DNA from: Amoebophrya sp. A120 | Taxonomy: Eukaryota > Protista > Dinoflagellata | NCBI GenBank assembly: GCA_905178155.1 | Contig: CAJINV010000003.1 | Location: 1,080,968 to 1,144,967 of the forward strand | DNA: 64,000 nt | Direction of reading: 5' to 3' | Shown: positions 864 through 58,106 of the stretch, in pieces | Position numbering within the stretch: position 1 is the stretch's first letter | Layout of the letters: the number at the start of each line of letters is the position of its first letter | The notes under the pieces: generated by a model | Databases searched by the model: none | What the model was told of the DNA's origin: nothing | The model's input: the letters and a program-made list of their open reading frames with translations, nothing else | Translations under genes and position numbers: made by a program

Positions 864-3405
864 TTAACTCCGTGATCGTCGGCCGGTCCTCAGGGCAGAA
901 TCTTGATTATGCAATGCAAATAAGGTATTGCACACAAACGCGAAGCGCCACGAGCAAGACACACGGACCTCAAGAAACGCGGCCCAAGGCCAAGAAGCGT
1001 TAAAACCTCCTCCAACAAGAAAACCAGCCTCCAGCATCAGTAGTTGCAGTTGGCCCAGTGGTGCTTGCTTCATCAGGTGTGCGCGCAATACATGTACAAC
1101 TTCTGCTTTGCATATTAGCATGGAAAACACGATTTTCCGCCCAAAATCGCCGTAGTGTTCCAGGATTTTCCGCCATTTACTGGCCAGCTTCCGCAGCTCG
1201 TCGTGCTGCGCGTGGAGGGCAGGAGGAAGAAACTGCGTTTTGAACCCGAAAGTCGCATCAATCGGCGCTTCCTCGAACTCCAGCGGAATGTCGCAGAAAC
1301 CCATGCACCCGGGCTGTGCCTGTTTCGCGACCCGGGTGGGTTTCTTGTCCGCGGTAGAGGGGTGGTTTCCCGCCTCCGTAACCAGCATGTGCAGCCCGGC
1401 GGACTGCAGCTCCTGCCCGAAAGATCCGATGAACCGCGCCGTGCCGCAGGGGGTTTCGGAGGTCGTCGTTGAGCTTGAGGAGGAGGCCTTCAACATACTC
1501 CCATCGGCGGGGCGGTCCAGGATCCTTTTACTTTCGTCTGCTCCCTTGTTCATCAGATCCACTAAAAAAACCGCGAGCATGCCGATGTCCACCTGCTTGC
1601 CGAACCGAACCGGATCGGGCTGCTCCAAGATGCGGGCCTTGTAGGTCCCGAGCCGCGTAATTGGGTTCAACGTCTTTTCGCGCAGTTCCCGCGCCGCGTT
1701 CTGCTCCTCCGGCGACGGCATCTTGAGCATCGTCCGAATGTAGTCCGACAACCGCCTCCCGCGGTTTTCCTTCTTCTTGCTGAACACCCCGGGTTTGCCC
1801 AGGACGTCGAAATGGTGGTCGATTTGCTATCAAATGCAAATGCTTATGCCTGGGTCTGGAAGGTTGCAAATTGTCGTGCTTTCTTCGGATCATAAAAAAA
1901 CTTTCATGGCGTGACCAGGAAGAGGAGTCCAGTCTGTGCTACGCGGGAAGCGAGGGCATTGATTTGTCATCCATGCGGAGCGAATAAGTACTTACGCATC
2001 AGGATGCCCTCCAAGAAACAGAAGCCGGCGACGCTTACGCTAGGTCATGCATTACAAACATCATGGGCCACACACAACTTGCATGACAAGCCTGGCAATC
2101 TTCCAGGCTCGGGCATATTTGCACGCGATATCTGTTCGAAGTTCACAAGTTCCGGCAGGAACGAGTGCTCTTGCGTCGGCGGGTTGTCATCTGAAGCACA
2201 CGAAAACTCCCCGATCTGCACCCGGATGCCTTTGCCGCCGTCTGTGAACAGATGGAGCAGGGTATCTTCCGTGATGTCCCTGTGATAGACATCATTCACA
2301 TGGAGTATCAAATGTAAAAATGTCTGCGTCTGGAAGAATCCAAGTTTGTCATGCCTGTCTGGCATGACTCTTAAATCTGTCATGCACATTACCAAAGAGC
2401 CCCACTTTTCTGTCATGCAGAGACGTAGTTTGTCACGCAGAATAGGCAACATCTAGAAGCTCACAAACTTGTCATGCTGAGCCAGCAATTGTCGCCTCCT
2501 CATGATACGGCGCACAGCATCACAAGTCTCCAGACCCAGACACTTTTACATTTGATATGGAGCACATGCAACCCATTCGCCACCTGGTTCGCGATTGGCC
2601 GGATGAAGGCCTTCGTCTGTTCCTCGGTCAACTGCCTTGCCGCGAAGCTCTGAAGCCGCGGAAAAACAGCGAAGACCGTGTCCATCCGCGGGCCATCGAA
2701 GAACATGTGTAAAGGCGCCAGCAGGCCAGCGGGCTTGTGTAAGGCGAGCGAGGCCAGCAGTTGGAGCTCGACCAGCGGTTTGCGCTGGGGCCAGGTTTTG
2801 TCGCGCTGCGCGGTCGACAACACCGGCGACTTGAAGATCACCTCCTTTACCGCTGCTCCTCCGTGGTCGAAGACGATCGGGGGATGCACTTGTGCCACCC
2901 GGTACGTGCTGTACTTCCCAAACTGCACCTGCTTTGAGAAGCTGTGGTAGACTCGCGCTTTTTCCTCGGTAGTCCGCGGAACGGGGAGCACAATCTTCTC
3001 GTTAGCCGGAAAACGCTGAACTGCGGCGGCCCCGCAAGCTGCGAGCAGATCCCCGGGCTCGGTGCCAAGGCACGACACGTCGTCCTCCTGCAGCAATTTT
3101 TCCGGTAGCAATTCCGGAATCAGGTCCGGGTTCAGAGAGCCCGCCAGCGACTCCAGCGCCGATGTGTTGCTAATAGACATAGGGGGGAGAAGGGCGCAGG
3201 AATTGCTAGTTTGCAACGACGGTGCCGCTGCCCCGGTGGACGCCGGCTGCTGATTGTTGCTGGAGGTGCCGAGGGCATCGGCGGATGAAAGAACCCCGTG
3301 GCTTGCTTTTACCGCCCCTGCAGCACGCGGGGGGGCCTTCAAAGACTTAGTTTCAATTTTAGCCCGCTTGGCCCCTGGAGATCGTGATGTGTCTCCTCTG
3401 GCCAT
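864..3405 (-). CDS. Protein kinase-fold protein, probably a pseudokinase; 3 exons separated by two TIR introners
   Basis: ORFs 2500..3405, 2045..2452 and 864..1787 join in frame after element removal: NGLHVLH-VNDVYHRDI and PELVNFEQ-IDHHFDVLGKPG. Motifs: HRDI; EFS at the DFG position; LPE at the APE position; subdomain IX-like QVDIGMLAVFLVDLM. Confidence 0.75.
1828..2130. mobile_element. Degenerate family A TIR introner, 303 bp
   Basis: Left end TATCAAATGCAAATGCTTATGCCTGGGTCTGGAAG; right end CTTCCAGGCTCGGGCATATTTGCACGCGATA. Imperfect TSD TTTGC/TCTGT. Removal restores the kinase frame. Confidence 0.75.
2306..2557. mobile_element. Family A TIR introner, 252 bp
   Basis: TATCAAATGTAAAAATGTCTGCGTCTGGA ... 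TCCAGACCCAGACACTTTTACATTTGATA. TSD TGGAG at 2301-2305 and 2558-2562. Removal restores LH-VNDVYHRD. Confidence 0.92.
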
Positions 3406-4334
3406 CTTGGATAAGCTAAAGGGTGCGACAGAGTCAGTAACTGAAACACAACCAGATTGATATTACAATGCGGAGTGTTAATACCTTGAGGAGATGAGTA
3501 AAGGATCAGCTAGTATGCTATCGAAATCGAGGCAAAGAAGGTTGCAAAATACGAGCCACTACCAGCTCAAACAAAAAATGCTAGATTTTGGTCGAAAGTG
3601 AGTTTGGTACATTATAATCAAAATCATATTTTTATCTGGAAACCACGTCAAAAAGACAAAGTACAGACTAGAAGCAGCACAAGAAGCACTCTGACGTCAT
3701 GTTGGTCATACGGTAGTTACATACTAGAAAGAAGCAAGTAAATCGACGCAGCCGCCCAAAGAGGCTCGAGTCAATCTCGAGTCGAAGGTTTGCAAGAGAT
3801 CATGCGAACAAGCACACGAAGACGAAGTACGAAGTATCTATGATCTTCTTTTTCACGACGATCCCCGTTGTCATTCTTATCGTTAGCTCTCTACAGTCCC
3901 CCAAAACATTTGTTTTTAAAGCGTCAACGATGGAACAAAGAGGACGTACCCGATACGAATAAAATACGACTTCTTCCCTCGCCAATTCAGACGCTCACCT
4001 TCTACGAGTCTAATGAAACTCAACGGAAATTTAAAGTGTATGCGTTTTTGGTCGATGACATGAACATATCGTTACTGAGAGACACGGTCACGACAGATCA
4101 CTTACTTTGACCACCTGCAGACAGAAACAACTACCAGGAGCCGTTCTTCCACTCACAGCTGGGGACGTTGGCGTTCTATCTGCAACAAATCCGTGATCCT
4201 ATCTTCCTTATCGTGATCTATCTTTCTGCAGCAGATCCGTGATCCTCGTCATCGTCACGTGCCAATGCCATACTTTTAGAAGTTTATCAAATCGATATAA
4301 AGCATGATGCTACCTGCTGATCAATTACTGGGAG

Positions 4335-4914
4335 CCCGGGGATCCCGCAGTACCCATCGGGAGAAAGGTTTCGCAAGACCGCAAAAGCTGCCAAAACTGC
4401 GAATCCAACTCCCGATCTGTTTCACGGGATCCCCCGGGACCGGGCGGGCCCCGGGGATCCCGCAGTACCCATCGGGAGGCAGGTTTCGCAAGACCGTAAA
4501 AGCTGCCAAAACTGCGAATCCAACTCCCGATCTGTTTAACGGGATCCCCCGGGACCGGGCGGGCCCCGGGGATCCCGCAGTATCCATCGGGAGAAAGGTT
4601 TCGCAAGACCGCAAAAGTTGCCAAAACTGCGAATCCAACTCCCGATCTGTTTCACGGGATCCCCCGGAACCGGGCGGGCCCCGGGGATCCCGCAGTACCC
4701 ATCGGGAGAAAGGTTTCGCAAGACCGCAAAAGCTGCCAAAACTGCGAATCCAACTCCCGATCTATTTTACGGGATCCCCCGGGACCGGGCGGGCCCCGGG
4801 GATCCCGCAGTACCCATCGGGAGAAAGGTTTCGCAAGACCGCAAAGGTTGCCAAAACTGCGAATCCAACTCCCGATCTATTTTACGGGATCCCCCGGGAT
4901 CGGGCGGGCCCCGG
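4335..4914. repeat. Tandem array of 5 x 115-bp GC-rich units, each an imperfect inverted repeat
   Basis: GATCCCGCAG recurs at 4341, 4456, 4571, 4686 and 4801. The copies are nearly identical. Confidence 0.95.
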
Positions 4915-5193
4915 CACCAGGCTCGAACCGAGGACATCAACGATCGTAGACGAAAGAGAACAAGGTGGTCCCGCCTGTGCTTTGCACTAGTTGTACTAGA
5001 ATGATGATGCAGCTTCTTGTTCTTACAAGACACCAGCATGGGAGCAGCATCAAATGCAGCTTTGATAGTATTGATGGCCTACCCACTTGTTGATACAGCG
5101 AGAGCATTGCTTGCAATAAAAATGAATCGCAATGTCCACAAAAAAAGTTCGTATCCATCAAAGTTCAAATAGAGACACCCGGCGGTGGTCGTG

Positions 5194-23582: not shown

Positions 23583-26500
23583 TCACCAAAATTTGCCCTT
23601 GCCTTTTCGATTCGGGCGCGCAAAACCCGTCATTTCTGCCCACTTGCCCTCGGCCCGCCTCCGGTGGTAGTGGGCGCCCTTTTTGACGCCCTTCCCCTTT
23701 CCCCAGATTAACCGCCCCTTTCGCGACGGCGGTGCTCCCTTGACCCAAACGGGAGCGTCCTTGTAACTGAGCGCTCCCGCGTCGACCCAGTTGGACCCGA
23801 AGGTTCCCCCCGTGAAATTCACCATCCCACCTCCCAGGATGTTTCCCTTATAGCCCCCAGCGAACCTTGGCAGGTTTTTGGCGAACCCGCAGGACCGGCC
23901 CCGCTCCGCTTCGGAAACGAGGCAATGCAGGTCCCCGTTTGTCCCCTGCGGCCCGATGAGCAGGAGCAGGCAGGGGTAAAACACCAAAGACATCAGCGCC
24001 GCGTACAGAATGGTGAAGAACATCGCGGCGCCGAGGCGCGTGAAAACGGAAACGTTGCAGAGGCGCCACAGCACCAGCGCCGTCGAAGCGGTTGTGACGA
24101 AGCCGGCCACGATCGACGGGCCCATCGACTGCATCGCGAATTGCACGCGGGGCCTCCGCCCGTAGAGCCCGTGGTTCCGTCCCCCCTCAATGTAACCGGT
24201 GCTTAAGTGCAGGATGTAGTCCATGGTCAGGCCAATCGCGATCAGCACGGCTAAGCTCTCGACGAGCCCGAACTCGGAGTCCATACTAATCAGCGTGGCG
24301 ACGACCATTTCCACGACGAAAAACGCGACCAGGTTCGCAAAGATCGTCACGATCCAATTCCGCGTGGCCAGGAGGACGGCGAGGAACACCAATGGGGTGG
24401 CCCACGCGATGCCGACAAAGTAGGAGATCGACACTTCCTTCATCGTCTCGTAAAACTGATAGCCCGTCGAGTACTGGTGCGCAAACCCCGCCTTCGCCGG
24501 CGCAATCAGGTTGAAATGGTCCAGAACACTCTGCACCGCTTCTGAAATCCGCTCGGCGTCGTCAAAGGGGATGTGCCGCAAAGAGGAAAAGGGGACAGAA
24601 AATTTCAATCCGTACATGGCGAAATTAGCCGAATTGATCCTGGTTTCGTCAAAATATAATCCGCCTCCGTCCTCGGTTGTGGACAGTAGAACGGGTACTT
24701 GGTCCGCGTCTTTATTCCCGTATTTCGCCGGGGGCTGGCAGGCGGAGGCACCGCTGCTCCAGGTGGTCGAGCCCCAGCACTGCGGACCGGTAACGTCGTC
24801 GCTTTCCAGTTTTCGCGCGGCACGCACGAATTGGTCCGTCCACGCCGGCCCCTGGTACACCGTGGTTGCGTCGGGCCGCTGGAAAAAGGCCGACTCGCCG
24901 CTGGCGGGGCCCCCTTGCGCGACGCGCTCCGTTGCGTAGGCCCGGTGGTAACCGCGAACCAAAGTCGCTCCGCCGGCCAACTGCCGTTTGGTTAAGAGGA
25001 AGCTCGCTGTGCTATCATCTTCGGAGGACTGGTAGTTGACGACGGGCAACGTGGTGTAGTCAAAGTCTTTGGCAAAAATGGTTTCTTCGGTTTGTTGCTG
25101 CACGACCTCTAGCACTGTGCGAAACGGACAGCGCAGGCTGTTGTCCACAAACGAATCCGTTTTATCGTTGAAGCTAGTCTCTAAACGTTTCCCCAGCTGC
25201 AGAATGTGGCGCACACTCTCGGGCGCGAGCAGGTCCACGGCCGGGTTTTTGTTCAGTTGCGGGTAGTTTCCGGAACTTTCGTCCCACTCCGGCAGCCACC
25301 GGGAACTTACGGTGGAGTCGCCCCCTTCGACCCACACCTCCTCCCTCACCCCCCAGAACACGTAGACCGTGTGGTTATTATTGGAAGACGGGAAATGGTG
25401 CCCCACCTCGTCCAAAATATCGCGCTCGTTGTACATGTGGGTTTCCGGGAAAAAGGACACGGGCTTCTCCGGGTAGTCAATCTGGCCGACGACGACGAGA
25501 GAAATGATCACCAGAATCCCCATCCCGAGGACAATCCCCATCGCCGGCGGGTAGCTGCACGCCGGGGTCGCGCGCAGATCCGCGTGCGCCGGGTTTATGT
25601 CCTCGTACGACTTGCCGAACGTTCCCGTGTACAAACCGCATAGCTCCTTCATGAACTTCGCCTTGGCCGAACGAAAATTTTCGTAGTAGTAATCGTTCCG
25701 CACGCCCCACAGGTCCTTTTTCGGCAGCGCGGAAAGGAGCGGGGAGGCGTGGAGGTACTTCAGGTAAGCGCTGAGAACCGCGGGCGCCACCACGACGGCC
25801 AGGAAATAGTCCGCGGTTAATAAACATGCCGTCAACAACCCGAGGTGGACCACGCCCGCGAAACTGCTGCTCAGCATCGCGAGGAAGGCGATGATAGTGG
25901 TGAAGGAGGTGGTGAAGATGCTCTTGTTGCTCCGGCGCAGCGCGCGGCGCAAAGCGATGTAGATGCGCACCTCTGTGTAGGCGGCTGGCCGGCCGGCGTT
26001 CAGGCCGTACTTGAAAGACTCCCGGGCCTCCCAAGCCAAGTCCGGATCATCGGTAACCGCCATGTATTACAGTGAAAAGTGCCCCCCCACCCCTGAAATT
26101 GTGATGCGAAGTTTCCACATGAAAACTGTTTGTGATGCATGAAAGGACTATGAATCTTTCTGATGCAGAGCCTAGGCGTGTATCGCATCGCTTGCATGAC
26201 AAGCGCCACCCTTGCTGGGGTCTTTTGCAATACAAATTTTCGCTATTCACGATTGGAAACCTGTCATGCTGATAGATGCAAGAGGGCGAGTGTTTCATTT
26301 GGAAAGGTTTGCAATACAAATGCTCCCAAGTTCGGGGGTGGGGGCATTTTTCATTGTAATACCATGGTTTGGAGCTTCGCATCTCCGTCCGGAACGTCGT
26401 GTCGCGCGTCCGGCAGCTCCTGTCGTAAAGTTTCGAACAGGACAAAGAAGTCGTCCGTGCCAACGGCGAAGAGGACGAAAAACGCAAAGTACATCACCGG

Positions 26501-28587
26501 GTCGAAGTAGCTCCGCCAGCAGACGTAAAAGTAGAGAAACATCCCCAGGCACAGGCTCGACAGCTGGAGTAAGAGCAGGTTTAAAATGCAGAAGGGGCTG
26601 AAGGTGAAAGCGTAGGTGATCACCACGATCGCGATCAGCGTGAACGGCAACCCGACCGCCACGTCGCGCGTCGCGAGCGCGTTGAGTTCTTCCCGGCTGC
26701 AGGCGGAATCGTAAAACCGGACCTGATAATCCAGGCTGTTAGGAAATTTATACCATCCCCCGTCGTTATTTAGGCGCGGGGATAAACCGGAGGCATCCGC
26801 GTCCGTGAAGGTCGATGCGAGCAAATCGTTCAGCCGTTCGCAGTAGTCGATGGTGAAATTGCTTTCCCGCGCGAACGTCGTCATCCCGGTGGAGGCCACG
26901 ACGCGGAGGGTAGTTATCAAATGTAAAAATGTCTGGGTCTGGAAGAATGCGCGATTTGTCATGCTGCTTTTCCATGACCCGTGAGGTCTGGAATGCAGGA
27001 CCTAGCATGACAGATTCTGCGACACTTCTCTAATGCCTATCCTGCATGAGAAACTCCCTCCCGACTTGGTCAAAACTGGACGACTTTTGGTAATCACGCA
27101 ACACAGATTTTTGCATGCTGCGGATTTAGCATGACAAGTTGCAATCTTCCAGACCCAGACATTTTTACATTTGATAGTAGTTTGGGCATTACTATCTCCG
27201 ACAACCGGCATTGCTTGTACCGTGCTGAGCGTTGGATCAATGGCGCCGACGGTTTCACAGCTGAGGATGTCGTCGATTTGGTCTTGCACCGCCTTCCAGT
27301 ACGACGCTTCCGCGGCCTCGCGCGCCTGTAAATAGTCGGTGGCATCCACGTCCAGATTCGCCAAGTAGGGCTCCATTTTTTCCTGCTCCAGTCCCCCCTC
27401 GCCCCAGAGCTGGGACGAGGAACTACTAGAGGCCAGCCACGCGAGAAACCCGATCCGACTGCGACTGTACACGAACCGCAGAAAGTAAAAATCCTTTCCC
27501 AACGGGAGGCTCGGCGAGCGCTGCAACGCGCCAAATAACGTCGTCTCCAGCTTGCAGGCAGCCCTCAAAAAGTTCCCCGATTGCAGGAGATTGTTGCCAG
27601 GATTATAGCTGATGTCCCGGTACAGGAGAAAGGGCTGCTGCATCAGCGTGGTCGCGTTCTTTTTGTCCCGGGAATCTGCGGAGAAAGTGGTGTAATCTGG
27701 CCCGTTGCTCGCTTCAAGCCCCTCCCGCCGCCGCAACGTCTGCATGTAGGCGAAGCTGTGTTCATAGTCCACCGGCGGCTTCCCCGAGTCCTCGTCTTTT
27801 AAATGTGAAAAGTAGGCCCGTGCGGCGTCGAACCCGTTGAAGCGCAGGTCCGTGTCGTTCCCGAGAAAAATGTCAGCTTCGGAGACGCCGGCCTGCGCGG
27901 ACGTCGACTTGGGAAACCCGAGCGTCTGCTGGGGCAGCGGGATTTTCAACCTGCCGTCCCACATGGTCCCCGCTTCTTCCCTCCACATCTGGTTCAGCGC
28001 CAACCGGATCTGCACCAGGGGAGATTCCAACGGGGCGTAGGACTATTACAATGAAAAATGCTCCCACCCCAGAACTTGGAAGCATTTGTATATGCAAACC
28101 TTCCCAAATGAAACACTCGCCCTCTTGCATCTATCAGCATCACAGATCGCCAATCGTGAATATGGTGTCCAGACGACAGAAGTTCGTAGTTCGTAGTTCT
28201 ATGACGGCACGCAAGACACAAGAGTTTCGAACATCGAAAGACTAGCAAAAGAGGAAGCTAAGCAGCTCAATGTCCGAAGTATTCGACTTCAGTCTATCCC
28301 TGTCGACCTGTAAAAGGTTAGCATCAAAAGATGAGGAAGAGTTTTAATTTGGAAACTTCGCATCACAAATCATCGAAACTTTGGCGGGGTGGGGGAATTT
28401 TTCACTGTAATAAGGAGAGCAGCGTGTTCCTCCAGTCGTCCGCGTCCACGAGGCTCGAGTCTACGCTGGAAATAGCCACCAGGCCGAGGCCAAGTAGGGT
28501 GAGAAAGTACGTCACTCCCAGCACCACAAAGGGAATCTTCGCCGCCGCGGCGCAGATCGGCCTCTGAACACAATCGCAAATGTACAT
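23583..28587 (-). CDS. Patched/Dispatched-like RND/SSD multi-pass membrane protein interrupted by three TIR introners; start uncertain
   Basis: Four ORF pieces join in frame: LLS-YAPLES, AQT-TLRVV and LQTM-AVTDD. Motifs AVGTDDFFVL and IGLTMDYILH; two hydrophobic TM clusters. Confidence 0.85.
26065..26361. mobile_element. Family B TIR introner, 297 bp
   Basis: TATTACAGTGAAAAGTGCCCCCCCACCCC ... GGGGTGGGGGCATTTTTCATTGTAATA. TSD CCATG at 26060-26064 and 26362-26366. Confidence 0.92.
26915..27176. mobile_element. Family A TIR introner, 262 bp
   Basis: Perfect TIR TATCAAATGTAAAAATGTCTGGGTCTGGAAGA. TSD GTAGT at 26910-26914 and 27177-27181. Confidence 0.95.
28044..28412. mobile_element. Family B TIR introner, 369 bp, inverted relative to 26065..26361
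   Basis: TATTACAATGAAAAATGCTCCCACCCC ... GGGGTGGGGGAATTTTTCACTGTAATA. TSD AGGAC/AGGAG. The first ~120 bp closely match the reverse complement of ~26245-26361. Confidence 0.9.
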
Positions 28588-29329
28588 TATCCTGTTGCCG
28601 CAAAAGTTACTATGTGTCTGACTGATAGTACACTAATCTGAGTGAAAGCATTGTCGTCGTGGTCGTTTGCTTTGATATAATTTTTGAGACACGATGGGTA
28701 AGAGTATCGGGTAAGCATAACAAAAACTTCTGGCGGTGGTCCTTTGACAGAATCTATTTGGGCAGCTACAGGCTAAGAGAAACAGTGCAGGAGCAACGTT
28801 CTCAACATAATCCTCAAATGGGCACGGCGATAAACATGGACAAGCAGCATAAGTACGAAATAAAACAACGCCTAGTAATCCACGAGCACGACCACGCACG
28901 AAAACGACGTCCAAGATTGAGTATAGTAAGTACAAACGTAAGTACTTTACGAAGCGCTTAGTGAACGACAAAAAGGAAGAACGAATTCCAAATTATTTCC
29001 TGTGGAGAGCAGTAGTATCAGAGTTGTAGATGGAGGACGAGACGATGGTAGTAGTGAGTCACGCAACGAAGAGAACGGACAACAGAGTGAAGCTGAAGAC
29101 GTACGATGTTCTCCAGAGGACTAGGACTATCTATGCATACCTCGAATTTGACAACAAAGATGAAAAGTCGATCACAGGCTTATCTCGCGGAAGGATACAA
29201 TGCTCCCCCAGCATCAAGCATGCTAGCTCGCATTCCTGCGGTATCATGGTCCATCAATCAGCAGCGGCGAGAGAGAGAGTCCAAAACAACGCGTTCGCAA
29301 ATCTGTCACAAAAAATCAGGACTGATTCA

Positions 29330-30635
29330 TTACAAAAGTTTCTGTACGCGGAAGAAGTGTTTTAGATGCCATACTTGCCAAATGCTGGTTACCAAAATGA
29401 GGAAAATCATGCCCAGGTTGACGGACATCATAGTGGAGATGGCGGATTCCAATAGGTACTCGAACTTCGCCAATTGCTTCTTCTCGTACTCGTTTTCGGC
29501 CGCAATCAGATCGGTCTGCGAAACCGACTCCTTCAGCAGCGCGTCGAGGGTGTTGATGTCCTTGGCCTTTACCAGCCCCCGCTGCTCATATAGACAGTAT
29601 GGAAACGAGAAAACAGACGAAGTTTGCTCCTTGCTCACTCGCTTTTTACCAACATGAACCAGGGAAGAGCACCACAACTGTAGTCCTGCTGTGGCACCGA
29701 TTGCTGTAACCACGTAGTGATTTTTCCTATCGCGTGGAGTAGACGTAGAAGATGACCTAGAGTATACTTAGACTTACTTACCACCTCCTTGAACCTGACA
29801 TACACAAAGTCCTGGCGACGCTTCAGTATTGAGCAGAAGCGGTAATGTTGACTTTGCATTTCCCTATGTTTGCGATGTTGCTGGCATCGGCATCCTCAAT
29901 TGCTGCGGTCTCTAAGGCCACAGTCCACCTGCTCTTCAGCTGGTTTCCCCACCAGTTCGTCTCTCCGCAGATTACTGAGAACCTTCGCGTTTATTTGTGC
30001 ATACCGTCACTACCATGAAAGGTCTCCATCGATCGCTGCAATTGAGCCTGATCGTCATCCTGATCTACTTCAAATGACATATTATAAGCAGAAAAAATCG
30101 CTCCTACACCAAACAAACTAGTTTTACCCAGTAAGGGCCTTAGGTCTAGCAAACGAAACAAACTTATGTACGAGTGTTCTCCTTCCATGTTGGTCAAGAT
30201 GCTGAACTTGCCCGCAGACTCGCCCTTGTCGTTGGGGGCCACGTTTTTCGTGTTGCGGACGACACCGTTGGTGTCTCGGAATTCGAGCCGGCAGTGCGTG
30301 GCACGGTCCTCGCTCACCGTGTACTTCACGCTGAACACTTGGCCCTCATCGAGGACTTTCACGAATGTTCTCGTCTGTCCCTCGCTCAAGTAGAAGTACG
30401 CACCTTTTTTTCCCTCCTCCACGGGGTCCGAGAGGGCGAGTTGCAGAGAGGCCGGCTTGGCCACTTGTTGCAGCATTTGTGTTGTACCCGCGGGCTGCAG
30501 CTCGGGGCCGGCGGCCGCCGCGGAGTCCTCGGAAGAGGTAGAGCCTCTTTGGTTGCTCCGCCCACCGCCACCCAGCGCGGCCACAGCGCCGCTGGCCACG
30601 AGGAAAAACCTCTTCCACAATCGCGGAAACCGCAT
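29330..30635 (-). CDS. emp24/gp25L/p24 GOLD-domain cargo receptor, multi-exon
   Basis: Signal-like N-terminus; YFYLSEGQTRTF; GKFSILTNMEGEH; C-terminal TM followed by WQVWHLKHFFRVQKLL, typical of p24. Confidence 0.85.
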
Positions 30636-33713: not shown

Positions 33714-35206
33714 TCATTTCATCATGTAAGCTCCACTGTGCGCACACTTGTCACAGAAGAGTTGTCTGTGCATGGTCATGACCGCAAACTCCGTGTTGTT
33801 GTAAGGCACAACCCCGATCGCCTCGATCTCATCGGGTTCGTACAGCACGCTTTTGCTCGCTTCCTTCAAAATGAAGATCTTGTTTGACTTCTTCAGGAAG
33901 AGCACTTGCACCTGTTAATATGGGATAAGAACCACATGATCATTGTCATTCTATGACAAACTGGTGCCTACTAACTTCATCGGTATAATTTCCTTCAAGA
34001 ATACGGTATTGCTTTATTGAAAGATCTGACCCTTGTAGAAATGAAAAATCCGAATCCCTATCAATCTGTATGACGAGGTCGTACTAGAAGGGGACAATCA
34101 TGAGCATGGGATAACTGCACAGGCCACAAAACAAACCATACTAAGTAAAAGTACCTCCTTGTTCTCGACGTGCGATAGAATGGTTATTTTGTTCGCCTTG
34201 TAGGTAACCATGAGTTCCCGCACGAAGCGCGAAATGGTTTCGAAGAACTTCAAGCCCCCGTTCACCCGATCCGCCAGCTGTACACGGCCGGCGTTTTGCG
34301 TAAACTTGAACTTCGGCACGGGCGCCTTGGGTTGCATCCACAGGATGGCGTTCGCGGGGGTGTTTTCCGCCCATTGCATGTATATTGTGCCGAAATTGTC
34401 CTCCTTGTAACAGAGGTAGCACCCCACACCGCAGGCCTTCAAGTCCGAAATGTCGGCGCCTGTTTTTAGGTGAGGGATGTTATCAAATGTAAAAATGTCT
34501 GGGTCTGGAAGAATCCGAACTTGTGATGCTGCATTTGGATTCCAAAAAAATCTGTATTGCATAAGCAGCAAAGGGAATGCAATTTTGGCTACGGGGAGAG
34601 GGCATTTGCCATGCGGAATGGGCATCACAGAGCCCTCAGAAAGTCTGTGATGCTAGGGCATGCATCACAGACATCATAGCCCATGCAAAACGTGCATGAC
34701 AAGTCTCAGAATCTTCCAGACCCAGACATTTTTACACGTGATAGATGTGGAGAACGCGCAACGAAGTGCAGGCGCAAGGTAAATTTCAAATCGAATCGAC
34801 CGCAAAACCACATAATTACATACTGAAGTAGTGCGATTAATATAGTCCAAGACTTTACTTACCTATGAAGGCCATGATCATGAAATCATCAAAAAAGCCG
34901 AAGTAAATTTTTACCGTCTCCTTTTGCTCTGGCGCCGTCCGCTTTCAAGCCCCTCATGGCTTCGTCCGAGAAGCCTTCCGAGAGGGCAACCGCCCCCCCT
35001 GCGCCCGGAGTAGCAGGACCCAGAGAGAACATCGAGCCTTCCCGGGCGACCCGGCCGTGGGGAGAGCCCACGCCCGCGGGCTCCTTCGCTCTCTCCTCCC
35101 TCGCCGCGGTGGGCGAAATTTGCAGCCCGGCCACCGAGCTTCGCTTTGGAGTGCCCGAGTACGCGGAGGGCGTCGGAGGTCCTTCCGTCGCGAACGACAT
35201 TGTCAT
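33714..35206 (-). CDS. Immune mapped protein (IMP1/IMP2)-like, multi-exon
   Basis: GCYLCY...GTIYMQWAE...PKAPVPKFKFTQNAGR and C-terminal IEAIGVVPYNNTEF resemble apicomplexan IMP1-like domains (recognised by eye). Confidence 0.6.
34481..34743. mobile_element. Family A TIR introner, 263 bp
   Basis: TATCAAATGTAAAAATGTCTGGGTCTGGAAGA ... TCTTCCAGACCCAGACATTTTTACACGTGATA. TSD GATGT at 34476-34480 and 34744-34748. Confidence 0.92.
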
Positions 35207-36066: not shown

Positions 36067-39000
36067 CTATTTGTAGATGATTTTCGCGCTGGACTTTAGT
36101 CGTACGGGGTCGTCCTGCGCCGCGGTTTCAAACTCGACGACAGAGATGGCGTTTTCCCCGGGCTTCAGCATCACGCCCGGGAGGTACAGGGTGTAGATCG
36201 GGCCTGCCGAGTTCCAGTATCTGCCAAGGTGCATGCCGTTCACAAAAACCACTCCTTTGCCAGTCGGAGACGGTGCGTTTGTGGAAAAAAGTGTTCGCAT
36301 GTCCAGAAATGTGTCGGCCAAGAGCTGCGTCGCCGGGTCTTTCGGCTCTGGAACCGAAAAAAAACCGGAGTAAATCGCGGGAAGTCTTGCCGTGGTGTCT
36401 GCGCTTGATGTAGTTTCCTGCTCCCGCTCTTGCTCGTTGCGCTGCCGTTCAGGTTCGTCCTCGCTTTGCTGTACTTGCTCGGTTTGTTCTTCAAGCTTTC
36501 TGCTCATTTGAACGACTACGTTGTTCGACTCCTGTATGCTGGACCCAGCTGCAGACGTAGTTGCTCGCTCTGCAGCGTTTTGTCGGTCCATGAGAGGCCA
36601 AATGTATCGCATTTGCGCCTTGGTAGTGTTGAAGGCCGCCATCTGGGCCGTGGCACGCTGTTGTTGTTTTCCACTCGACCATGTCGTCGTTTTAATCGAT
36701 GCCGCCACAAACTCTTCGTGCTGTGCCGATATCTTGTCGAAAAGTCCTTTGCACAAATGCAACGTACCCGCCGCAGCGGCTTTGAAGCCCGAAATCTGGA
36801 ACCCCTTCCGGTCCTGCAGCATTTGGGGCGAGAAGTTTTGCCGGCCGTAATTTTCCACGACGAAATCAATTATCCTGTGCAAAAGTATCGTACTCGTAGT
36901 AATTACATTCATGCATTACAAATCTTGCTCTTAAGCTAAATCCGCATTACAAATTTTATTTCTCATGCTGAGGAAACTTGTAATGCATTTATACGAGTAC
37001 GATACTTTTGCAGTGCATATCAATTTCCGCGTGGCAATCTTTCTTTTCGATGTGGAACTCCGCAGCTCTGTTTTGATTTTGATTTTGTAAAAGATAAAGA
37101 TCAAGAAGCACCGCATTAAATCGGACAAGCAGTACAGTACTTCTTCAGCAAAGCCCAATTTTGCGCTCCAAACAGAAGTTCAAATCAGCAAACGCAGCAG
37201 TTGTATTCTAGAGTTGAGTACCCACTATCTTCGCGGTCGACCCAGCGGATGAGGTTTCCGCCGACAAAGACGTAGACTCGGTCGTTGGCGTTTGTGATTT
37301 TGAACGAACGCTTCGAACAGCCGGAGGGTGTGGAACGGTACAGGAAAACGTGATCGAATACGTCGTGCTCGTGTGCAAACAGGTCCGCATCCACCGCCGG
37401 TGGGAGTGCTTGACACCGGGCACCGTCACTCACGTCGACCTAAAATCAAATTGACCGTTTGTTTGAATCAACCCGGCTCTTGGTGATCATTTTTGAGATC
37501 TTCATCTTCTACGAGGGGAGGGAGCAGATTATACATATTTGAATGCGGAAACTTCATCAAAACAATACCGCCTTCAGCAGCGAATATGACTCCTTCTGCA
37601 GGACGATATCTGGGTACACGGTCGGTGATGGCAGCAGGCTTCCTGACCTTGATGAAGATGATGTCCTCGTCCCGACTGGAGCACCAGGAGTTTTCCTTGA
37701 TGCGATTTCGTTTTTGATTGCCAGAAATTTGTCTTCATTATCCGATCCGATGCCGTGGCCGCCGTCCTCCGCGATCGGCGCGTTATAATCGTAGCTGGTC
37801 ACCTGCGGTTGCCCGAGGTATTTTTCCTTCAGCCAGGACTCCGATTTCAGATTCAACCCGTTCGTGAAGCCAAAGTTCGTACACCCGAAGGCCATGTAGA
37901 GGTTGAAATTGGGCAAGGACTTCATCGTGCTGATCATCGTTTTCGCGTCCGTGGTGGCGAAGTTGGAATCTTTCCAGGCCGTCATCCACCCCGTGTAGTA
38001 CTCGGACACAAACTCCGGCGACTTTCCCGCCTCGTTCCAGTGGCGCATGTTCATGAAACTGATGCGCGGCGACCAGATGGTCGGCCCGAAATCGCCCACG
38101 TGGTACACGTGCTTGGTGGCGTCGTGGATGCCCCCGGCGTTCAGGAGCAAGTAGTTGTCCGTGGTGTAGTACTGCACTTTCGTGCCCAGGTGCCTCTGCT
38201 GCTCGCTCAACGCCCAATCTATCCTGAGTAAAAACGTACCCACACCATAGTCAAGATGGGGAATCGGCTAGACAAGTCCACAAGTTTTGGCTGTTTTGCA
38301 TGACAAATTTGGATTCGTAGTGCAGTGCTGTTTGAGCTAGCTCAGCAGCATCACAGATCTAGCATACCATGCTGATTGGAGCATGACAAATTGCAAAACA
38401 CGACTAGAAAATGCTTCTCATGGGGCTCCGCATGAGAAACATTTTCAGCATGCAGATTTGCATTACAACTCTGGTGTGGGTACGTTTTTACTCAGGATAC
38501 AATCCATGTATTTCTTATCCTCGTCCGACTTTTGCACGTGCCCTTTGCATTTTGTGCAGGAAATCTAGCCCGGTCCTGGGACAAAAATTTCGGGCGGCTA
38601 ACCTCCCTTTGCATTTCAAAAAGGGAGGCTAGCCCGGTCCCTGGGCAAAGTTTTCGAATGGCTAACCTCCCTGTGCATTTCAAAAAGAGAGGCTAGCCCG
38701 GTCCCTGGGCAAAAATTTCGGGTAGCTAACCTTCCTTTGCATTTCAAAAAGGGGAGTTAGCTCCTGCCCAAAAATTTCAGTGGGCTAACCTAGGTTTGCA
38801 TTTCAAAAACCTAGGTTAGGAAAAATGAATTCGCGCACTTTTGCTAACCGCCCTTTTCAAAATGAAAAAGGCGGGTAGGAAAAAAAATCCGGCCGCTTTC
38901 CCAGGTTCAGCCTGGAAAAGCGGCACATTTTTTTTTCCCCATTCAAATGAAAAGGGCGGTTGGGAAAAAGGCGCCAATTCATTTTTCCTAACCTCCCTTT

Positions 39001-40567
39001 TTCAAGTCTCGTTCTCGTGCCCAAGCCAAAGCTGCCCACTACCTGAAAAAGTATTGAGGTTGTGAGAATTTAAATGGTGGCTTTCTAGCAGCCAGACTGT
39101 GCAAGTTGCGGCAGATGCACTATCACAAGGAAAAGCAAACGATAGGCATCGCAAATGCAGAAACCGACTTGCGTTTTTTATTGTCCGGAAAGGAGAGCAA
39201 TTAATAGCGCCACTCGTCGCGCACGCAGCATGGGATTGCGGCGGGCGAGGAGTAAGCTTTCCGATTTTCAGCTGCCTTGCTCGTTTTCTTGTTCAGTTCT
39301 TGCGCCTGGGCTGTGCAGTTGCCGCAGACGCGCTACGCCAATGATTACGCGTATGCATCTTGTATATTACATAGAAGCAACTTGCGCTGTTTGTTCTACG
39401 GAAATAAAGGGCGCACGCCTGTCGCACAAGGACGAGCAGCAGACGCAGCGCACAAAGGTTCCGACGCGTTTTTGTTTTCCATTCCTAGTCATCAGCTACT
39501 CGCGCTCGCTAAAATTATTCCGAGCGATGGGGCGTCAAATGTCTGGACTTATGAAAGGGCCGCTAATTCGGTTCTATAGAGTATTTCTTATCCTCGTCCG
39601 ACTTTTGCACGTGCCCGTAAGACCCAAACTCGTTTTCCACCTGGACCATCAGGATTTTGCCGCCCTGGTTTTCCACAAACAGGTGCTTTTTCAGCGGGGG
39701 GAGGAGGTAATTCCAGAAGGTTTTCACTTCATCAAGGTATGGCTTGGAAAAGGTGCGGATCTTCGGCAACTTTTGCAACCGTGCCGGCAAACCCCCGAAG
39801 TCCCATTCACCGCAAACGTACGGGCCCGGGCGAAGGAGAAGCCAGAATCCCAGCTTGGACGCCAACTCGATGAATCTGTGCAGCAGCCGGGTTTTTTCTT
39901 TTGGTGACGCCAAAAAGTTGTCATGCGTTCGTGCTATAATCACCGTTGCGTAAAAAAATAGGGTGTGATCAGTGATTTTGGCCGCAGACGTACTTACACA
40001 GAAAAAAAGCATCGCCATCGGTTTTTTCCATCTAAAAATAAATGCGAAGCACCTGACATGGCTCCCCTCACCGGCTAACTCAGCGAGATTCCAGGGCACG
40101 TAGAATTGGATGGTATTGAGCCCCATGTCCTTCATGCTCTGCAGTCGGTCCGCCCAGTACACTTCGGGTAGCCGGAAGTAGTGAAACGAACCTGAATACA
40201 GATTCAGCTTCTCTCCGTTGATGTGAAACTCATCATTCTCCAGCGTGAACGTGTTTTCCCCGGCCAGAGAGCTGACGTCTTTTGCTGCTGCGGCACTTGA
40301 ATCATCATAACCTGGAGTCGCCACAGCCACAGGAGACGCAGTTTCGGCAGGACTAGCTTGTATCCCTTTCCTGCCTCGCAGAATGTCTTTTTCTCCCGGA
40401 TTCAAATCCCCTGGCTGTGGCAAGTTGGTGTTTTTTAGCACGTAGATTACCGCGTCCCAGTCCCCAGGTTGCAACAAGTGGTTCCTGCAGCTGTGAAACA
40501 ACGCGAAAAAGAGCAGAGCCAGTGACAGCACTGCGCCAAACACGACGACCGCGCTAACGCGCACCAT
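36067..40567 (-). CDS. Glycoside hydrolase family 35 beta-galactosidase, multi-exon, with N-terminal signal/anchor
   Basis: [66 protein letters not shown] and [14 protein letters not shown]. Confidence 0.93.
36871..37019. mobile_element. Family C TIR introner, 149 bp
   Basis: TATCCTGTGCAAAAGTATCGTACTCGTA ... TACGAGTACGATACTTTTGCAGTGCATA. TSD TCAAT. Removal gives [11 protein letters not shown]. Confidence 0.9.
38220..38499. mobile_element. Family D TIR introner, 280 bp
   Basis: Perfect 28-bp TIR TATCCTGAGTAAAAACGTACCCACACCA. TSD CAATC at 38215-38219 and 38500-38504. Removal gives KKYMD-WALSE. Confidence 0.93.
38508..39616. repeat. Perfect 36-bp direct repeat of exon sequence flanking a 1037-bp insert
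   Basis: GTATTTCTTATCCTCGTCCGACTTTTGCACGTGCCC at 38508-38543 and 39581-39616. Confidence 0.92.
38565..38995. repeat. About four 64-bp tandem hairpin units followed by an inverted repeat with ~46-bp arms
   Basis: CTAGCCCGGTCC at 38565, 38629 and 38693. GGTTAGGAAAAATGAATT...CCGCCCTTTTCA (~38814-38859) is inverted at ~38949-38994. Confidence 0.8.
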
Positions 40568-46740: not shown

Positions 46741-46957
46741 TCGTAGGTCTGCTAGATCTGCTCAAGCTCAACCGCAAGGAAGTACTTTATCTTCAAGAAG
46801 AACACGAACAATGCTTCTACTGCAGCACCCGATGAGTGCTCGACTTCCACCAGCCGTTTCTCGCACAATGTCAATGCAGCTCGCAAGGCAACGTTTTTTT
46901 GCAACACGCTCGTGGAGAGGGCGCGTTCGAATTACATCACTGCAGCTGCAGCACCTT

Positions 46958-49900: not shown

Positions 49901-51540
49901 CGGCCGCGTTCGCACTGCGGGGAGCGACTGCTGTGTGGCGGGGACGCGAGTGTCCCACACACTGAAGGGCGTGCTCAGTATCTGAATTTCTGCGAGGCGG
50001 CGTGGACTTATTTCTTCCTCCAAGTCTGGCAGTTCTTGCTCTGGATCATCGGCTGTAAGTTTTCTCTCTGCAGTGCTACTTGTGCTCGCAAGAACGTCAT
50101 ATTCACGAGCAAAAGCAGCTCCCTGCGTGCTCGCGAAGGCTTCTTGCTCCGCTGAAAGCGGATAAGTTGTATCCGTATCGGGAGAAATAGTAGAACCATT
50201 TTCGTCGCTCATCAGCTCCCTTGGCGTTGGCGGCTGCTCATCCATTATGCCTAGCAACCTCCGTCGCCTCGCAGCTGGGGGCAGGAACGCGAGTTGCGTT
50301 GGCGAAGGCGGCACGAAGGTCTCCCGATAACTCACTCGGCTCTGCAAGTTCAGCTGCACCTGCCGGAGATTAAACGCCGCGCTGCGGTCCGCGTCGAGAA
50401 ACAAGTAGAGCATGACGACGAAGAGCAGAAACAGCAGGCACTCCACGAACCGGCACTGCAAGTCGAACACCGCCTTCTGTCGCTTGATCCGCCCGCGCTC
50501 GATCAGTTCCTGCAGGGTGGGGATTTTCGACGGGTCGACCGGATCCAAGTCAATTTCCATCTGGCCGCGCAGCTTCCGGTGCAGCGCCAGCTGCTGCTTC
50601 AAAAACGGGTGGTTGAAGGAGAAGTCCCGCCATTTTTGCCCCTTGGGCGCCAGCGTGTCCACCACGACCAATTCCGTGGTCGCCTTCACCAGGGTGAACC
50701 GGTAGTACTGGTTTGAGACCACGTAGTCACTGCCCGCGGGCAGGATGATCTCCCCCAGCGTCATGCTGTCCGGTACCAGCTGGCCCTCGCGGTCGAGGAA
50801 AAACACGATCTCCTGCTCCAGCCCCCAGTACTTCGCGGCCTGCTGCTGCAGGCTGAGAATCTTGGCATCCACCTGCACCATGAACACCGCGAGCAAGCTC
50901 CCGCTCCCCTCGACGACCGGCTTCCCCGTAACGGACTTCACGTGGTACACGACCTCCACCTTCATCTCGTTCTTTGCGACGTTGGTCGGGGACGAAGCGG
51001 TTGAAGCATTTCCGGCTCCACCACCTCCACGACCCGCCGACCCTGTCCCTTTCTGCACGAGAAACTGCACCAGCACGTTGTTGCAGCCGGAGTGGCACTG
51101 AAAGAGTGCCTCGTCGGACAGCCCCGCGGACGCGTTTTCCTTCAACTCCGCCAGCCGGCCCTCGGTGGACGCGAGGTCGAGCGTAACGCGCTGCAGATCC
51201 TCCTGCGTTTCCAGCACTTCCTTCCCCTTTTTTTGCACCAAGGCGTTGACGAGCTGGCCCTGCTTCGTGAGGTCGTGGACGATGCGCTCCAGCGTATGCA
51301 CTGCAAAACTATCGTACTCGTACTATTAATCGCAGTCATGCATAACAAATCTCGATCTTAAGGAAAATCCGCATTACATTTCTCATGCTGAGCTAATTTG
51401 TGATGCAATTCATACATACTAGTACGTGCACGACACTTTTGCGATGCATACAGCGCGTCCTTCTGCAAAATGCGGTCCACATGCTTCTCATCCACGATCC
51501 CCTCCACCACGTCCTGCTCCGTGCCCAGTCGCGGATCCAT
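46958..51540 (-). CDS. Polycystin-2/PKD cation channel-like membrane protein; start uncertain
   Basis: FLLFVVMLYLF first TM; FNTFFYNSNEEGLVVSRLLFDIRNSGGV resembles the polycystin domain end; last TM FFLFMVVFLFGEQLLVAIMVN; N-terminal coiled coil. Confidence 0.65.
51295..51450. mobile_element. Family C TIR introner, 156 bp
   Basis: TATGCACTGCAAAACTATCGTAC ... GTGCACGACACTTTTGCGATGCATA. TSD CAGCG. Interior similar to 36871..37019. Removal gives KDAL-ERIVHDL. Confidence 0.9.
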
Positions 51541-52729
51541 GATGTCGGGCAGAAAGTATATTCAAATGCCCCCCTCGACGTCGCCACACAGCTTTTAAAG
51601 GGAGTGAAAGCCAGGAGCGGTCGGCGACCGTACCTGCATGTGCGGCACGTGTCGCCCCGGAACGCTGGATGATGAAATCACCCGCGAAAAATTTTTATCG
51701 AGTCCAGCTCTTACCTCTGCATCTTTGTCCCGAGGTGCGCTTGGTCCTCGCGGCTATCGGTGCCATGCAAACGATCTTCTTGGAAACTCGAGCTGCAAGA
51801 ACAACCTGTAGTGCCTCTCTACAGCGTCGAACATGATGGCAGCCGCCTCTCCTCTGCATTTGGCTCTCGCGAAAACACTCCGAACATGGAATGGGGCCGA
51901 AGATAGAGAGCTGTTCATTTATCGCAGCGCGGTCGCTCTTGATTGTGAATAAGTCGAAATTCGAGAAGATACTCTCCAGCGCACTGTCTCGCCCATAGCG
52001 ACAGTTCACGACGCTCCAAGGGTCATACGCCGGCAGTAGCTCCGATTCCGGTGCAAGGCACGGATTTCCTGGGATCCCATACGTTGGCGCAGCAATCGCA
52101 GCCGAATCTGCTATCTCGCGCAAGCCAGTACAACAGAAAAGCGCCGCTACGACCACGAGATGTGTGTGCCTATCGGCCGCACTGGGAAAATGATGGAATG
52201 GTGAGTAGAGGTAAGTACATGACATTGTCCAAAATGAAACCGCCATTGTACAGGTCTTTCGTACGTACACGTGAGATTTTTTGGCCATCGTACGACATTC
52301 ATCTATTGCCGGTAGCTGGTGGACTAGCTGGTCGAAAAGCTCTGGTGTGTTAAAAGTGTTTGTGATACTCTGCACCGCAAAACAGTTGTCATTGGAAACT
52401 TCTAAAAAAATGTGGCTGCACAGGAGTACAACATAAACTTTCCGCGAATTTCTACTGCATGTCTTCAGGTTGATTGTAACGTAAAGAAACATTTGAAAAA
52501 ACTTTGTAAAGAGGCATTTCTTTGGACATTCTGAGTAAATTATTGCTTGAGTTGTCTATAAACGAAACTTGAACTTGTTGTGAGACTCACTCTACTTGTT
52601 GTTTTACATAGCATACTCTGATGAAATGCGAAATGGACTTGAAACTTCGAAAATGTTCTCTCGAAGCGATTAGCGGCGTAATTCATGGTAAGTACCGCCA
52701 ATGCTTTTCTGCCCTGGTTAAGAAGTATT

Positions 52730-55700: not shown

Positions 55701-58106
55701 CACGATCAGCAGACCGGGGATGAGAATCACCATGAAAATGATGACGAAGGAGACCCGAATCGAGACGGCTGCATGTAGTCGGTCGGAAATTTTCCGAGCC
55801 GTGCCGGCGTATTCGGAGGTCTGGCGCATGCCCGGCAGCATCTTCAAGATCTTGACCAGCCGAAAGAACCGCCCGGCACGCGCCGCTAGCTTAAACATCC
55901 TGGTTACCAGGATGATGGTCGCGTCACCGTCCTCACTCTGATAAAAATTGCATTTAGGAAGATGAACATTTGTTTGCCTAGCTTTATTCATCTCGCACCT
56001 CCGCACCTTGCAACTACAAACAAGCACTTCACAACAGAAAAACAAGCACAACTATAGTAGTACAAGTAGTGGGTGTGTCTATGAAAAACAACAAGTAGCC
56101 GCAGCCATGAGTACTCTTCTACCTGAGAATAGGTTGCCTCCGCGACGAAGCTGAAGTCTGCGACGACGGAGAGCATTCCGAGGGAGTCCATCCAAAAGAA
56201 AAAGGAGTAGGTATACCCAACCGTCCCGAGGCACTGGACGGATATTTCGAAGAGAAACGCGCCAATGACGAAGCCGAGCAGCACGTCCAGCGCCGTGGTG
56301 TTTGCCACGTCGCCCACCACCCACAGATCCGGGAAGTACAACGCGATCAAAAGGGTGAGCAGCATGACCATCTGGAACGTGGGGTCCTTTTGCATTTCCC
56401 GGGACGGCTTCTCCCAGCTGCGCACCAGGTTGCGCAGCTCCTGCAGCACTTGCGGTTCCCGTTGGAGTAAAACCGCGGACTGCTTCCCCGACCCGGCGGC
56501 ATTGTTCCGATTGAACGGCGAGACCGTGGCAATCACCGAGATGGGGGACGATATCAAGTTGGAGAAACCGCTTGTTGTTCCTTTCGAGTGCTTGCTCGGC
56601 GACGAGGAAGACATCGTTGGGCCGCGGTTTTGCGGCGTTGTGGTTGCGCCGGAGGAAGTGCCGGAAAGCTTCGCGGCCGCGCCGGGGGACGAAATCGATA
56701 AGCCGGCCTCCAAATCCGTGGCACTGCCGGAAGAGCCGAAACCGCCGCCGCCGCCCAGCGCCGCGTTCTCCAAGGCTAAAGCTTGCTGCTCCTGCTTCTC
56801 CTTCTCGAGCATCTCCGCCAACTCCGTTTTCCAATCGCTGGGCTCCATGCCGAACAGGTTCTCCCAGGTGCGCATGTAGTCGTTCAGCAGTAATGTTCGG
56901 TCGTCCTGGGGCCCGAACACCGTGGAGGCAACCTGCACCGGGAGTTTCCCGTCCTCGTCCCGCACAAAGGGGTCCGCGCCCGCGGAACAGAGGGCGGACA
57001 GCATCACCTCGTTCGAAGCAGACGGCAACTTCAGTGCGGTCAATAACGTCGGCCCCCGCGCGGGACTGGCGCCGGCGAGGAGCAGTGCCTGGAGCCCCAG
57101 GTAGTTGTCGTGCTCGATCGCGATTACCATCGGGATTTTGCTGATTCCTAAAGAGTTTGAGGTGGTCCTCGAGCCGTTATTCGCCACCTTCACCGCGGCA
57201 CGGTCCTCGAAGGTGCCGTTCTTGTCTGCGTGATACCAGAGCAGCAGCTCCACCAAAATCACCGAGAACATCTGCTCTCCATGAGTTGCCCCGCCGGAAC
57301 CCGGATTTTTTGCGCTAGACAGGGAAACCGCCGCGCAAAGCGGACTCCAGCCGTAGTGGTCCACAATGTCGTGTCTGGCCCCGCGAGAAAGCAACAGCCT
57401 CGCGGCCGCCACGTTCTTGTTCGCGCACGCAAGCAGCAGCGCCGTCTGCCCGCAGTCTGAAAGCGCATTGACGGAGGCACCGTGCTCCAAAAGCAGCTCC
57501 AGCATGGTTGTGCCGTTGCGCAGTTGCGGCCGAGACGCGACAAAACCTGGGTTACAGGAAGGTCTTTGATTTCAGCTATTTTGACTACACAGACTTCGAC
57601 CTAAAGTGCCTTCAAATCAAGCAACGAAGCAAAAACGGTAGCTGAAAAGGAACCTAGCAGCGTGGTGAAGGAATCGTGAAAGTCGTCGTAGCACGGGACG
57701 TCGATGCAGATGGACATCGTGCCCAGCATCTTCTTAACCTGCGTGACGTCCCCGCTGGCGACCACATTTCGAAGCTTGGTCAACCCTTCGAGATCGTCCT
57801 GCAGCTTGGTCAAAATGACCAAGTTATCACACAGAAAAAAGCTGGCAGGTCACATTTGTAATGCAAAAATAAATACACGAAAAACTCTGCACTGCGTATC
57901 CTAAGCAGCATGCTATGAGGCCGCCCATGACAGATTTTTCTGTGTATTAATTTTTGCATTACAAATATGCCCTGCCAGCTTTTTTCTGTGGGATACAAGT
58001 CCGCGGGGTTCAGCACTTCATCGCCCATCAGCCGGCTCGCGAGAGCAGCGGACGACGCGCCGCCGGCCCCGCCCGCGTCCTGGGGGTTCGCCAAACCCGG
58101 ATCCAT
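52730..58106 (-). CDS. Class I 3',5'-cyclic nucleotide phosphodiesterase with N-terminal ankyrin repeats and a multi-TM region
   Basis: PDE motifs YHNWLHAVDV, HDAGHPG, LENMH, TDM, LHSADISN, EFFLQGD and SQMGFI. Ankyrin GQTALLLAC and GWSPLCAAV. Canonical intron example: 53674..53865. Confidence 0.9.
57825..57995. mobile_element. Family E TIR introner, 171 bp, with ~58-bp TIRs
   Basis: TATCACACAGAAAAAAGCTGGCAGG ... CCTGCCAGCTTTTTTCTGTGGGATA. TSD CAAGT at 57820-57824 and 57996-58000. Removal gives PADL-VILTK. Confidence 0.93.

Follow-up and report, generated by a model that had tools for sequence, protein, structure and literature searches.

Inverted-repeat elements and their host genes

The window analyzed here is a 64,000-nt stretch of the Amoebophrya sp. 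A120 genome (GCA_905178155.1, contig CAJINV010000003.1, positions 1,080,968-1,144,967) that contains eleven short elements bounded by inverted repeats, most of which interrupt coding exons. In RNA-like contigs such elements are missing together with 5 nt of flanking sequence, at junctions that are not GT-AG. A first-pass annotation of the window had listed ten of them, each with a 5-bp target-site duplication and all inside coding exons of six genes. At all ten listed coordinates TAT…ATA boundaries and complementary terminal ends were found, with element lengths of 149-369 nt. The list was not complete: an eleventh element, 908-1114, came to light through an unexpected transcript joint (902->1115). 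The flanking direct repeat is perfect over 5 bp at eight of the ten listed elements (8/11 including 908-1114) and is imperfect at 908, 1828 and 28044, where 2/5, 3/5 and 4/5 bases match, respectively. Nine of the ten proved to be exonic, spread over five genes, and the element at 34481 lies within an ordinary intron. The eleven elements are given below, in window coordinates; X3, X4 and X5 are assembled contigs of one sample, A25 is a relative of A120, and P numbers denote proteins.

908..1114, minus strand: element, 207 nt, TAT…ATA, repeat 2/5; near the end of the kinase-like gene; joint 902->1115 skips 212 nt (X4, X5), and a loose end in X3 is consistent with it; retention adds stops.
1828..2130, minus strand: introner, 303 nt, repeat 3/5; within an exon of the kinase-like gene; joint 1821->2130 skips 308 nt (X3, X4), with 2 ambiguous letters; the upstream repeat copy is retained.
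2306..2557, minus strand: introner, 252 nt, perfect repeat; directly ahead of HRD in the kinase-like gene; joint 2299->2557 skips 257 nt (X3, X4).
26065..26361, minus strand: introner, 297 nt, perfect repeat; within an exon of a gene without a Pfam match; X3 contig 10 passes 26362->26059, with 302 nt skipped and zero letters between.
26915..27176, minus strand: introner, 262 nt, perfect repeat; exonic; X3 contig 10 passes 27177->26909, with 267 nt skipped and zero letters between.
28044..28412, minus strand: introner, 369 nt, repeat 4/5; exonic; a piece of X3 contig 10 stops at 28038; same family as 26065, in opposite orientation.
34481..34743, minus strand: element, 263 nt, perfect repeat; nested in a 455-nt GT-AG intron (about 34460-34914) of an IMP2-domain gene; protein P0004 skips one 455-nt gap.
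36871..37019, minus strand: introner, 149 nt, perfect repeat; within an exon of the GH35 beta-galactosidase gene, directly ahead of VENYGR; P0001 skips 154 nt and is collinear with A25 P0002; a piece of X3 contig 13 stops at 36864.
38220..38499, minus strand: introner, 280 nt, perfect repeat; exonic in GH35; a piece of X3 contig 13 stops at 38214; P0001 reads MDW; an in-frame GT-AG alternative is unused.
51295..51450, minus strand: introner, 156 nt, perfect repeat; ~30 codons past the likely start codon; the joined frame is gap-free across the site in 4/5 homologs, P0036 being gapped just upstream.
57825..57995, minus strand: introner, 171 nt, perfect repeat; follows codon 37 of the ankyrin-phosphodiesterase gene; P0006 skips 176 nt and is collinear with A25 P0007.

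Pairs of TAT…ATA ends with a perfect 5-bp repeat were observed eight times, whereas 50 local shuffles gave 0.18 on average and never more than 2. The end motif TAT + 7 nt + AAA is present in the window elements, one end of 908 being decayed. A profile scan of the window for further decayed elements recovered 908 and no other convincing pair; it returned 41 pairs against a mean of 13 in shuffles, many of them using ends of known elements. Matches were obtained by blastn in the listed metagenome loci (described below) for ten of the eleven elements, the best at 70-98%, indicating a repeated family, and no match to 908 was found in these loci. Related elements occur in opposite orientations, with RNA support, in the pairs 26065/28044 and 2306/26915. 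Inverted ends, a fixed 5-bp duplication, short length, absence of coding sequence and many copies are features of miniature inverted-repeat transposable elements (MITEs), and all were found here. In the 2709 nt of elements, the subterminal motif TTGT(A/C/G)ATGC is present 22 times (10/11 elements), compared with twice in the remaining 61291 nt; it spans families, is carried by 249 of the 266 elements of the listed loci, and is a candidate transposase or splicing-factor site.

The host frames are all on the minus strand, and removal of the element plus 5 nt leaves an open minus-strand frame at all nine exonic sites of the original ten, which bears out the proposal that deletion of an element with one repeat copy rejoins the flanking frames. 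Each of three protein searches (3/3) gave a 100% identical Amoebophrya sp. A120 protein together with an A25 relative at 45-61%. Placement of the annotated proteins on the window revealed a 154-nt gap at 36871 and a 176-nt gap at 57825, with 38220 also omitted and all collinear with A25; the three genes mapped in this way additionally contain 12 gaps that resemble ordinary GT-AG introns. The conserved motifs reported beside inserts were recovered, HRD adjoining 2306 and VENYGR adjoining 36871. A Pfam search with three unjoined pieces of the kinase-like gene gave no match, and it is by its motifs alone that the gene is called a kinase. A four-exon chain around 26065, 26915 and 28044 adds up to the full 3694 nt of X3 contig 10 and has no stop in 1231 codons.

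Several other features of these genes and their surroundings were recorded. Transcript contigs of the kinase-like gene run on from 822 into sequence beyond the window, which points to one more intron, longer than 800 nt and with a GT donor. Across window 864-63868, every Pfam-positive gene is encoded on the minus strand, as are the longest open frames, which fits the unidirectional gene clusters reported for Amoebophrya. In the GH35 gene (38508-39616, minus strand), a 36-bp exact direct repeat of exon sequence surrounds ~1 kb containing 64-bp tandem units and palindromes; the annotated protein retains one copy (1073 nt removed) and is collinear with A25. No GT-AG junction fits there, the best being GA-AG, and judged by its sequence the region may be another type of non-canonical intron, one that lacks inverted ends. 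An intergenic array at 4335-5029 consists of 115-bp GC-rich units, 95-97% alike, with internal palindromes.

An end-pattern scan of metagenome contigs gave at least 137 stretches, of which 136 loci, without RNA support of their own, were used. For one family, a perfect 5-bp repeat flanked 136 of 169 end pairs and a perfect repeat of 6-8 bp flanked none, nine of the 169 being mispairings over an inner end. With a broader finder, 266 elements were obtained, in which the repeat matched at 5/5 bases in 192, 4/5 in 43, 3/5 in 12 and fewer in 19. An exon filter based on codon scores retained 125 of the 266 and dropped the remainder; it called the correct strand for 7 of the 9 window elements that were found, the two misses being the intronic element and 38220. 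Of the 36 loci that received more than one call, 35 were consistent in strand. The 125 elements are unevenly distributed over the phases at their start (31, 56 and 38 for phases 0, 1 and 2). Two longer copies, L026 3862-4492 (631 nt) and L039 4791-5762 (972 nt), also have perfect 5-bp repeats, and inner end-like motifs suggest nesting. As regards an autonomous element or transposase, these two longest clean copies contain no frame over 86 codons, and no match was found in viral contigs.

Removal from transcript contigs and retention in DNA-like runs

Contigs X3-X5 are taken to be RNA-like, a guess supported by their zero depth over 3601-4300 and 1873-2016, as expected of RNA. In these contigs, exactly the element plus 5 nt is missing at the five of eleven sites for which both sides were seen (908, 1828, 2306, 26065 and 26915). 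At three further sites (28044, 36871 and 38220), contig pieces stop where loss of the element plus 5 nt predicts, and removal is inferred from one side. The elements at 51295 and 57825 lay outside the read comparisons, and the intronic element at 34481 is without an RNA joint among those listed. The RNA-like contigs therefore support the precise, non-GT-AG removal of element plus 5 nt that had been proposed.

A hairpin together with a short direct repeat is the classic setting for artifacts of reverse transcription, and template switching across hairpins could in principle make such joints from genes that are broken or otherwise spliced. That the joints were seen in cDNA-derived contigs only would suit this explanation. 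However, they are exact at 908, despite a weak hairpin and no more than 2 letters in common; they restore frames of 620 and 1231 codons, as well as collinearity with A25 orthologs and other homologs; and no retained form across 1873-2016, inside element 1828, was present in X3-X5. Template switching is thus scarcely credible as the source of the joints.

The raw RNA run compared (X10, a 2026 run under the same species label) yielded 161 reads, of which 155 showed 90-95% likeness to a related element, and was silent on the window genes. In this run an end related to window 27090-27176 occurs in different flanks, placing that end family also in transcripts of what looks like another strain.

The same transcripts would arise if the DNA itself were cut, by programmed excision via the direct repeats in the manner of internal eliminated sequences (IESs), followed by transcription of element-free copies. 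This route had been offered as an alternative to splicing, and the anatomy of the elements fits footprint-free transposon excision. Two DNA-like runs nevertheless keep the elements joined to their flanks, and no element-free allele was seen in them. Run X1, with flat depth near 44 on unique sequence, contains contigs that lead out of the flanking sequence into six elements without a single difference, at a depth of 40-44, equal to that of the flanks (11 of 12 junctions, among those listed), and no element-free joint was present among the X1 joints listed. Run X6, which covers intergenic sequence, crosses into 908 and 1828, and the three transcript joints (902->1115, 1821->2130 and 2299->2557) are absent from its full joint table, at low depth. 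A single nucleus would, moreover, lose an excised element permanently. The strand-asymmetric retention of the upstream repeat copy described below also points to an RNA step, although all three cases come from one genomic strand. The data represent only a few life stages, and assembled contigs lose rare variants, so that these data lower the chance of DNA excision rather than remove it; IES-like excision is accordingly regarded as very improbable. A further run, the estuary metagenome X9, consists mainly of element copies and includes a 192-nt contig, at low depth, identical to unique window sequence 29233-29424.

Position of the cuts and a putative removal pathway

The position of the cut is hidden by perfect repeats and exposed by decayed ones, which makes 908, 1828 and 28044 the informative copies. 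In transcripts of all three, bases of the upstream repeat copy are retained. The offsets of the 5' cut from the first element base are {-2,-1,0} at 908, {-1,0,+1} at 1828 and {-4..0} at 28044, and combination of the three sets therefore leaves {-1,0} if one rule applies. Under that single rule, the 5' cut coincides with the start of the inverted repeat or precedes it by one base. The 3' cut falls 4 or 5 nt beyond the element, in former target sequence without a fixed base. This asymmetry in favor of the upstream copy was not found in the accessible portions of the printed record; Figs. 3, S19 and S23 of PMC7789003 and the supplementary material of PMC12130899 may be relevant to it. Because copies with 2/5, 3/5 and 4/5 repeats are removed as precisely as the others, a matching repeat is unnecessary, and the earlier suggestion that removal is guided by the direct repeat is not supported. 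Removal also occurs in both orientations, as seen in the RNA-supported window pairs; among the 39 of the 125 exon-filtered elements assignable to window families, orientation was divided 20 versus 19.

GT-AG was found among the equivalent junctions of none of the eleven window elements (0/11), in keeping with the first-pass annotation; at 38220, however, a frame-keeping GT-AG pair that would add one extra codon adjoins the junction, and both contig 13 and P0001 use the non-canonical junction instead. The 125 exon-filtered elements have no favored base in or beside the repeat, and GT-AG is reachable in 5 and GC/GA-AG in 8 of them. Three further candidates for a signal or constraint were rejected. 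A G-TAT…ATA-G arrangement co-opted as GT-AG was present in 14/125 elements and was not enriched. A purine bias at repeat position 5 (8/10 exonic window elements) was gone in the 125 elements, at 0.60 versus ~0.56. Coding constraint on both repeat copies, suggested by three synonymous differences at 1828 and 28044, was not borne out in the listed loci, where 11/26 mismatched repeats were synonymous.

In ten of the eleven elements, most of the 16 terminal positions have a pairing probability of >=0.9. The explanation that we favor, at a probability of roughly 0.7, is removal at the RNA level with cuts that are measured from the element ends and do not depend on GT and AG; a dedicated pathway is the preferred agent. 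The odds on the machinery are a judgement, and both pathway and enzyme are putative. The elements would have arrived by cut-and-paste transposition in the manner of MITEs. In the pre-mRNA their ends would pair into a stem, or a protein recognizing the common end motif would keep them together; since the ends of 908 pair weakly, a protein is perhaps involved in recognition. The 5' cut would be made at the stem foot, with an offset of 0 or -1, its 3' counterpart would follow 5 or 4 nt beyond the stem, and cuts measured in this way would restore the insertion site exactly, whatever its sequence. Removal would thus be a splicing step operating beside normal GT-AG splicing.

The same RNA-level geometry could be produced by the ordinary U2 spliceosome in a relaxed form, with N-T-A-T as the donor at offset -1 and an acceptor that lacks AG and is defined by its distance from an adenosine in the ATA end. 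Offset -1 is allowed by the data and gives T at +2 and A at +3, as in most local donors. According to the accessible portions of the respective reports, 83 of 89 spliceosomal proteins were found in Amoebophrya, with U1 undetected (PMC7789003), and the tunicate Fritillaria offers a precedent for a rewired spliceosome (PMC13326754). By contrast, neither cut has a fixed base, removal works in both orientations, both cut sites would lie within a stable stem, and the available GT-AG at 38220 is ignored. On balance, a relaxed U2 spliceosome appears unlikely.

Several points weigh against a dedicated, end-measuring pathway. The cut geometry is derived from three elements only. Offset -1 gives an intron start N-T-A, like the GTA of most ordinary local donors, which suits a relaxed spliceosome, and nearly all spliceosomal proteins are reported as present in Amoebophrya in the part of PMC7789003 consulted. 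Element 908 is removed despite a weak predicted end stem (pairing ~0.25, fold z 0.12), so that the signal consists of more than a stable hairpin. All RNA evidence is one sample's assembled contigs (X3 = X4 = X5), whose RNA status is guessed; the annotated proteins may stem from the same data as the transcript contigs; and the only raw RNA reads compared, those of X10, match just a related element. No excised product, enzyme or transposase turned up in the window, the listed loci or the contigs, no genome-wide factor search having been made.

A bolder form of the proposal is held only tentatively. It envisages a second machine, independent of the spliceosome, that reads the paired transposon ends only, making a flush 5' cut and a 3' cut five bases beyond the stem; such a machine might erase insertions of these transposons from mRNA whatever their site, orientation or duplication state, and would stand, with a code of its own, as a convergent counterpart to the system in euglenids. 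Any mechanism is constrained by retention of the upstream repeat, an offset of 0 or -1, indifference to repeat matching and to orientation, and disregard of a nearby GT-AG. About a fifth of copies (55/266 at 3/5 or 4/5, in the listed loci) have mismatches able to report the cut position from RNA reads; 8 of 32 mismatches are at repeat position 5, the one that separates offset 0 from -1.

Comparison with known introns

As described in the accessible text of Farhat et al. 2021 (PMC7789003), A120 introners have ends that open with TAT, followed by seven variable bases and then three A or more, are flanked by 3-5-nt direct repeats and account for 29,850 repeated introns; they are non-GT-AG, RNA-supported and arranged in repeated families (1954 published families in A120). 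The legend of Fig. S19 gives a repeat of 5 bp, and that of Fig. 3 calls the border within the repeat unknown. The window elements are members of this class, which is already known, because the protein matches are 100% to A120 and the ends fit the published motif; the link to Amoebophrya introners drawn at first reading thus stands. With respect to that description there is no difference in kind: the decayed repeats narrow the border and show the repeat to be dispensable. What is added is a sharper junction rule from three copies of a class that is itself known, real and well supported. Assignment to a U2 GT-AG introner class was rejected, with GT-AG at the used junction in 0/11 window elements and reachable in 5/125 elements of the listed loci. 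Other Amoebophrya, such as AT5 and the parasite of Karlodinium, have mostly GT-AG introns, according to the available part of PMC12005148.

Within the same genome, introner family 38 is reported, in the portions of Gozashti et al. 2025 (PMC12130899) at hand, to be flanked by inverted repeats and to contain integrase-like reading frames, whereas the elements here are short and non-coding. Family 38 is a possible source of transposase for them. A 5-bp duplication suits an integrase-type enzyme.

The introns of Fritillaria borealis (PMC13326754, PMC11282704; accessible portions) resemble the window elements in being MITE-derived and non-GT-AG, with inverted repeats and target duplications. They differ in that their preferred ends are AG-AC and AG-AT and their spliceosome has a duplicated U2AF, whereas neither end has a fixed dinucleotide here. 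Diverged U2AF paralogs and excision as lariats characterize introns of the Fritillaria type. The nonconventional introns of euglenids, as far as the available text of Nomura et al. 2025 (PMC12501133) and PMC11282704 goes, carry the signature N3CDG…CHGN5-6|R (PMC12501133), which is absent from the window elements, where G at position 6 has a frequency of 0.02, the exon start has no purine bias and the stem begins at the cut. Euglenid introns of this kind leave the transcript as full-length circles and not as lariats. These introns provide, all the same, the closest working likeness, with inverted-repeat ends, a likely MITE origin, GT-AG introns alongside and ~5 unpaired nt at the 3' end.

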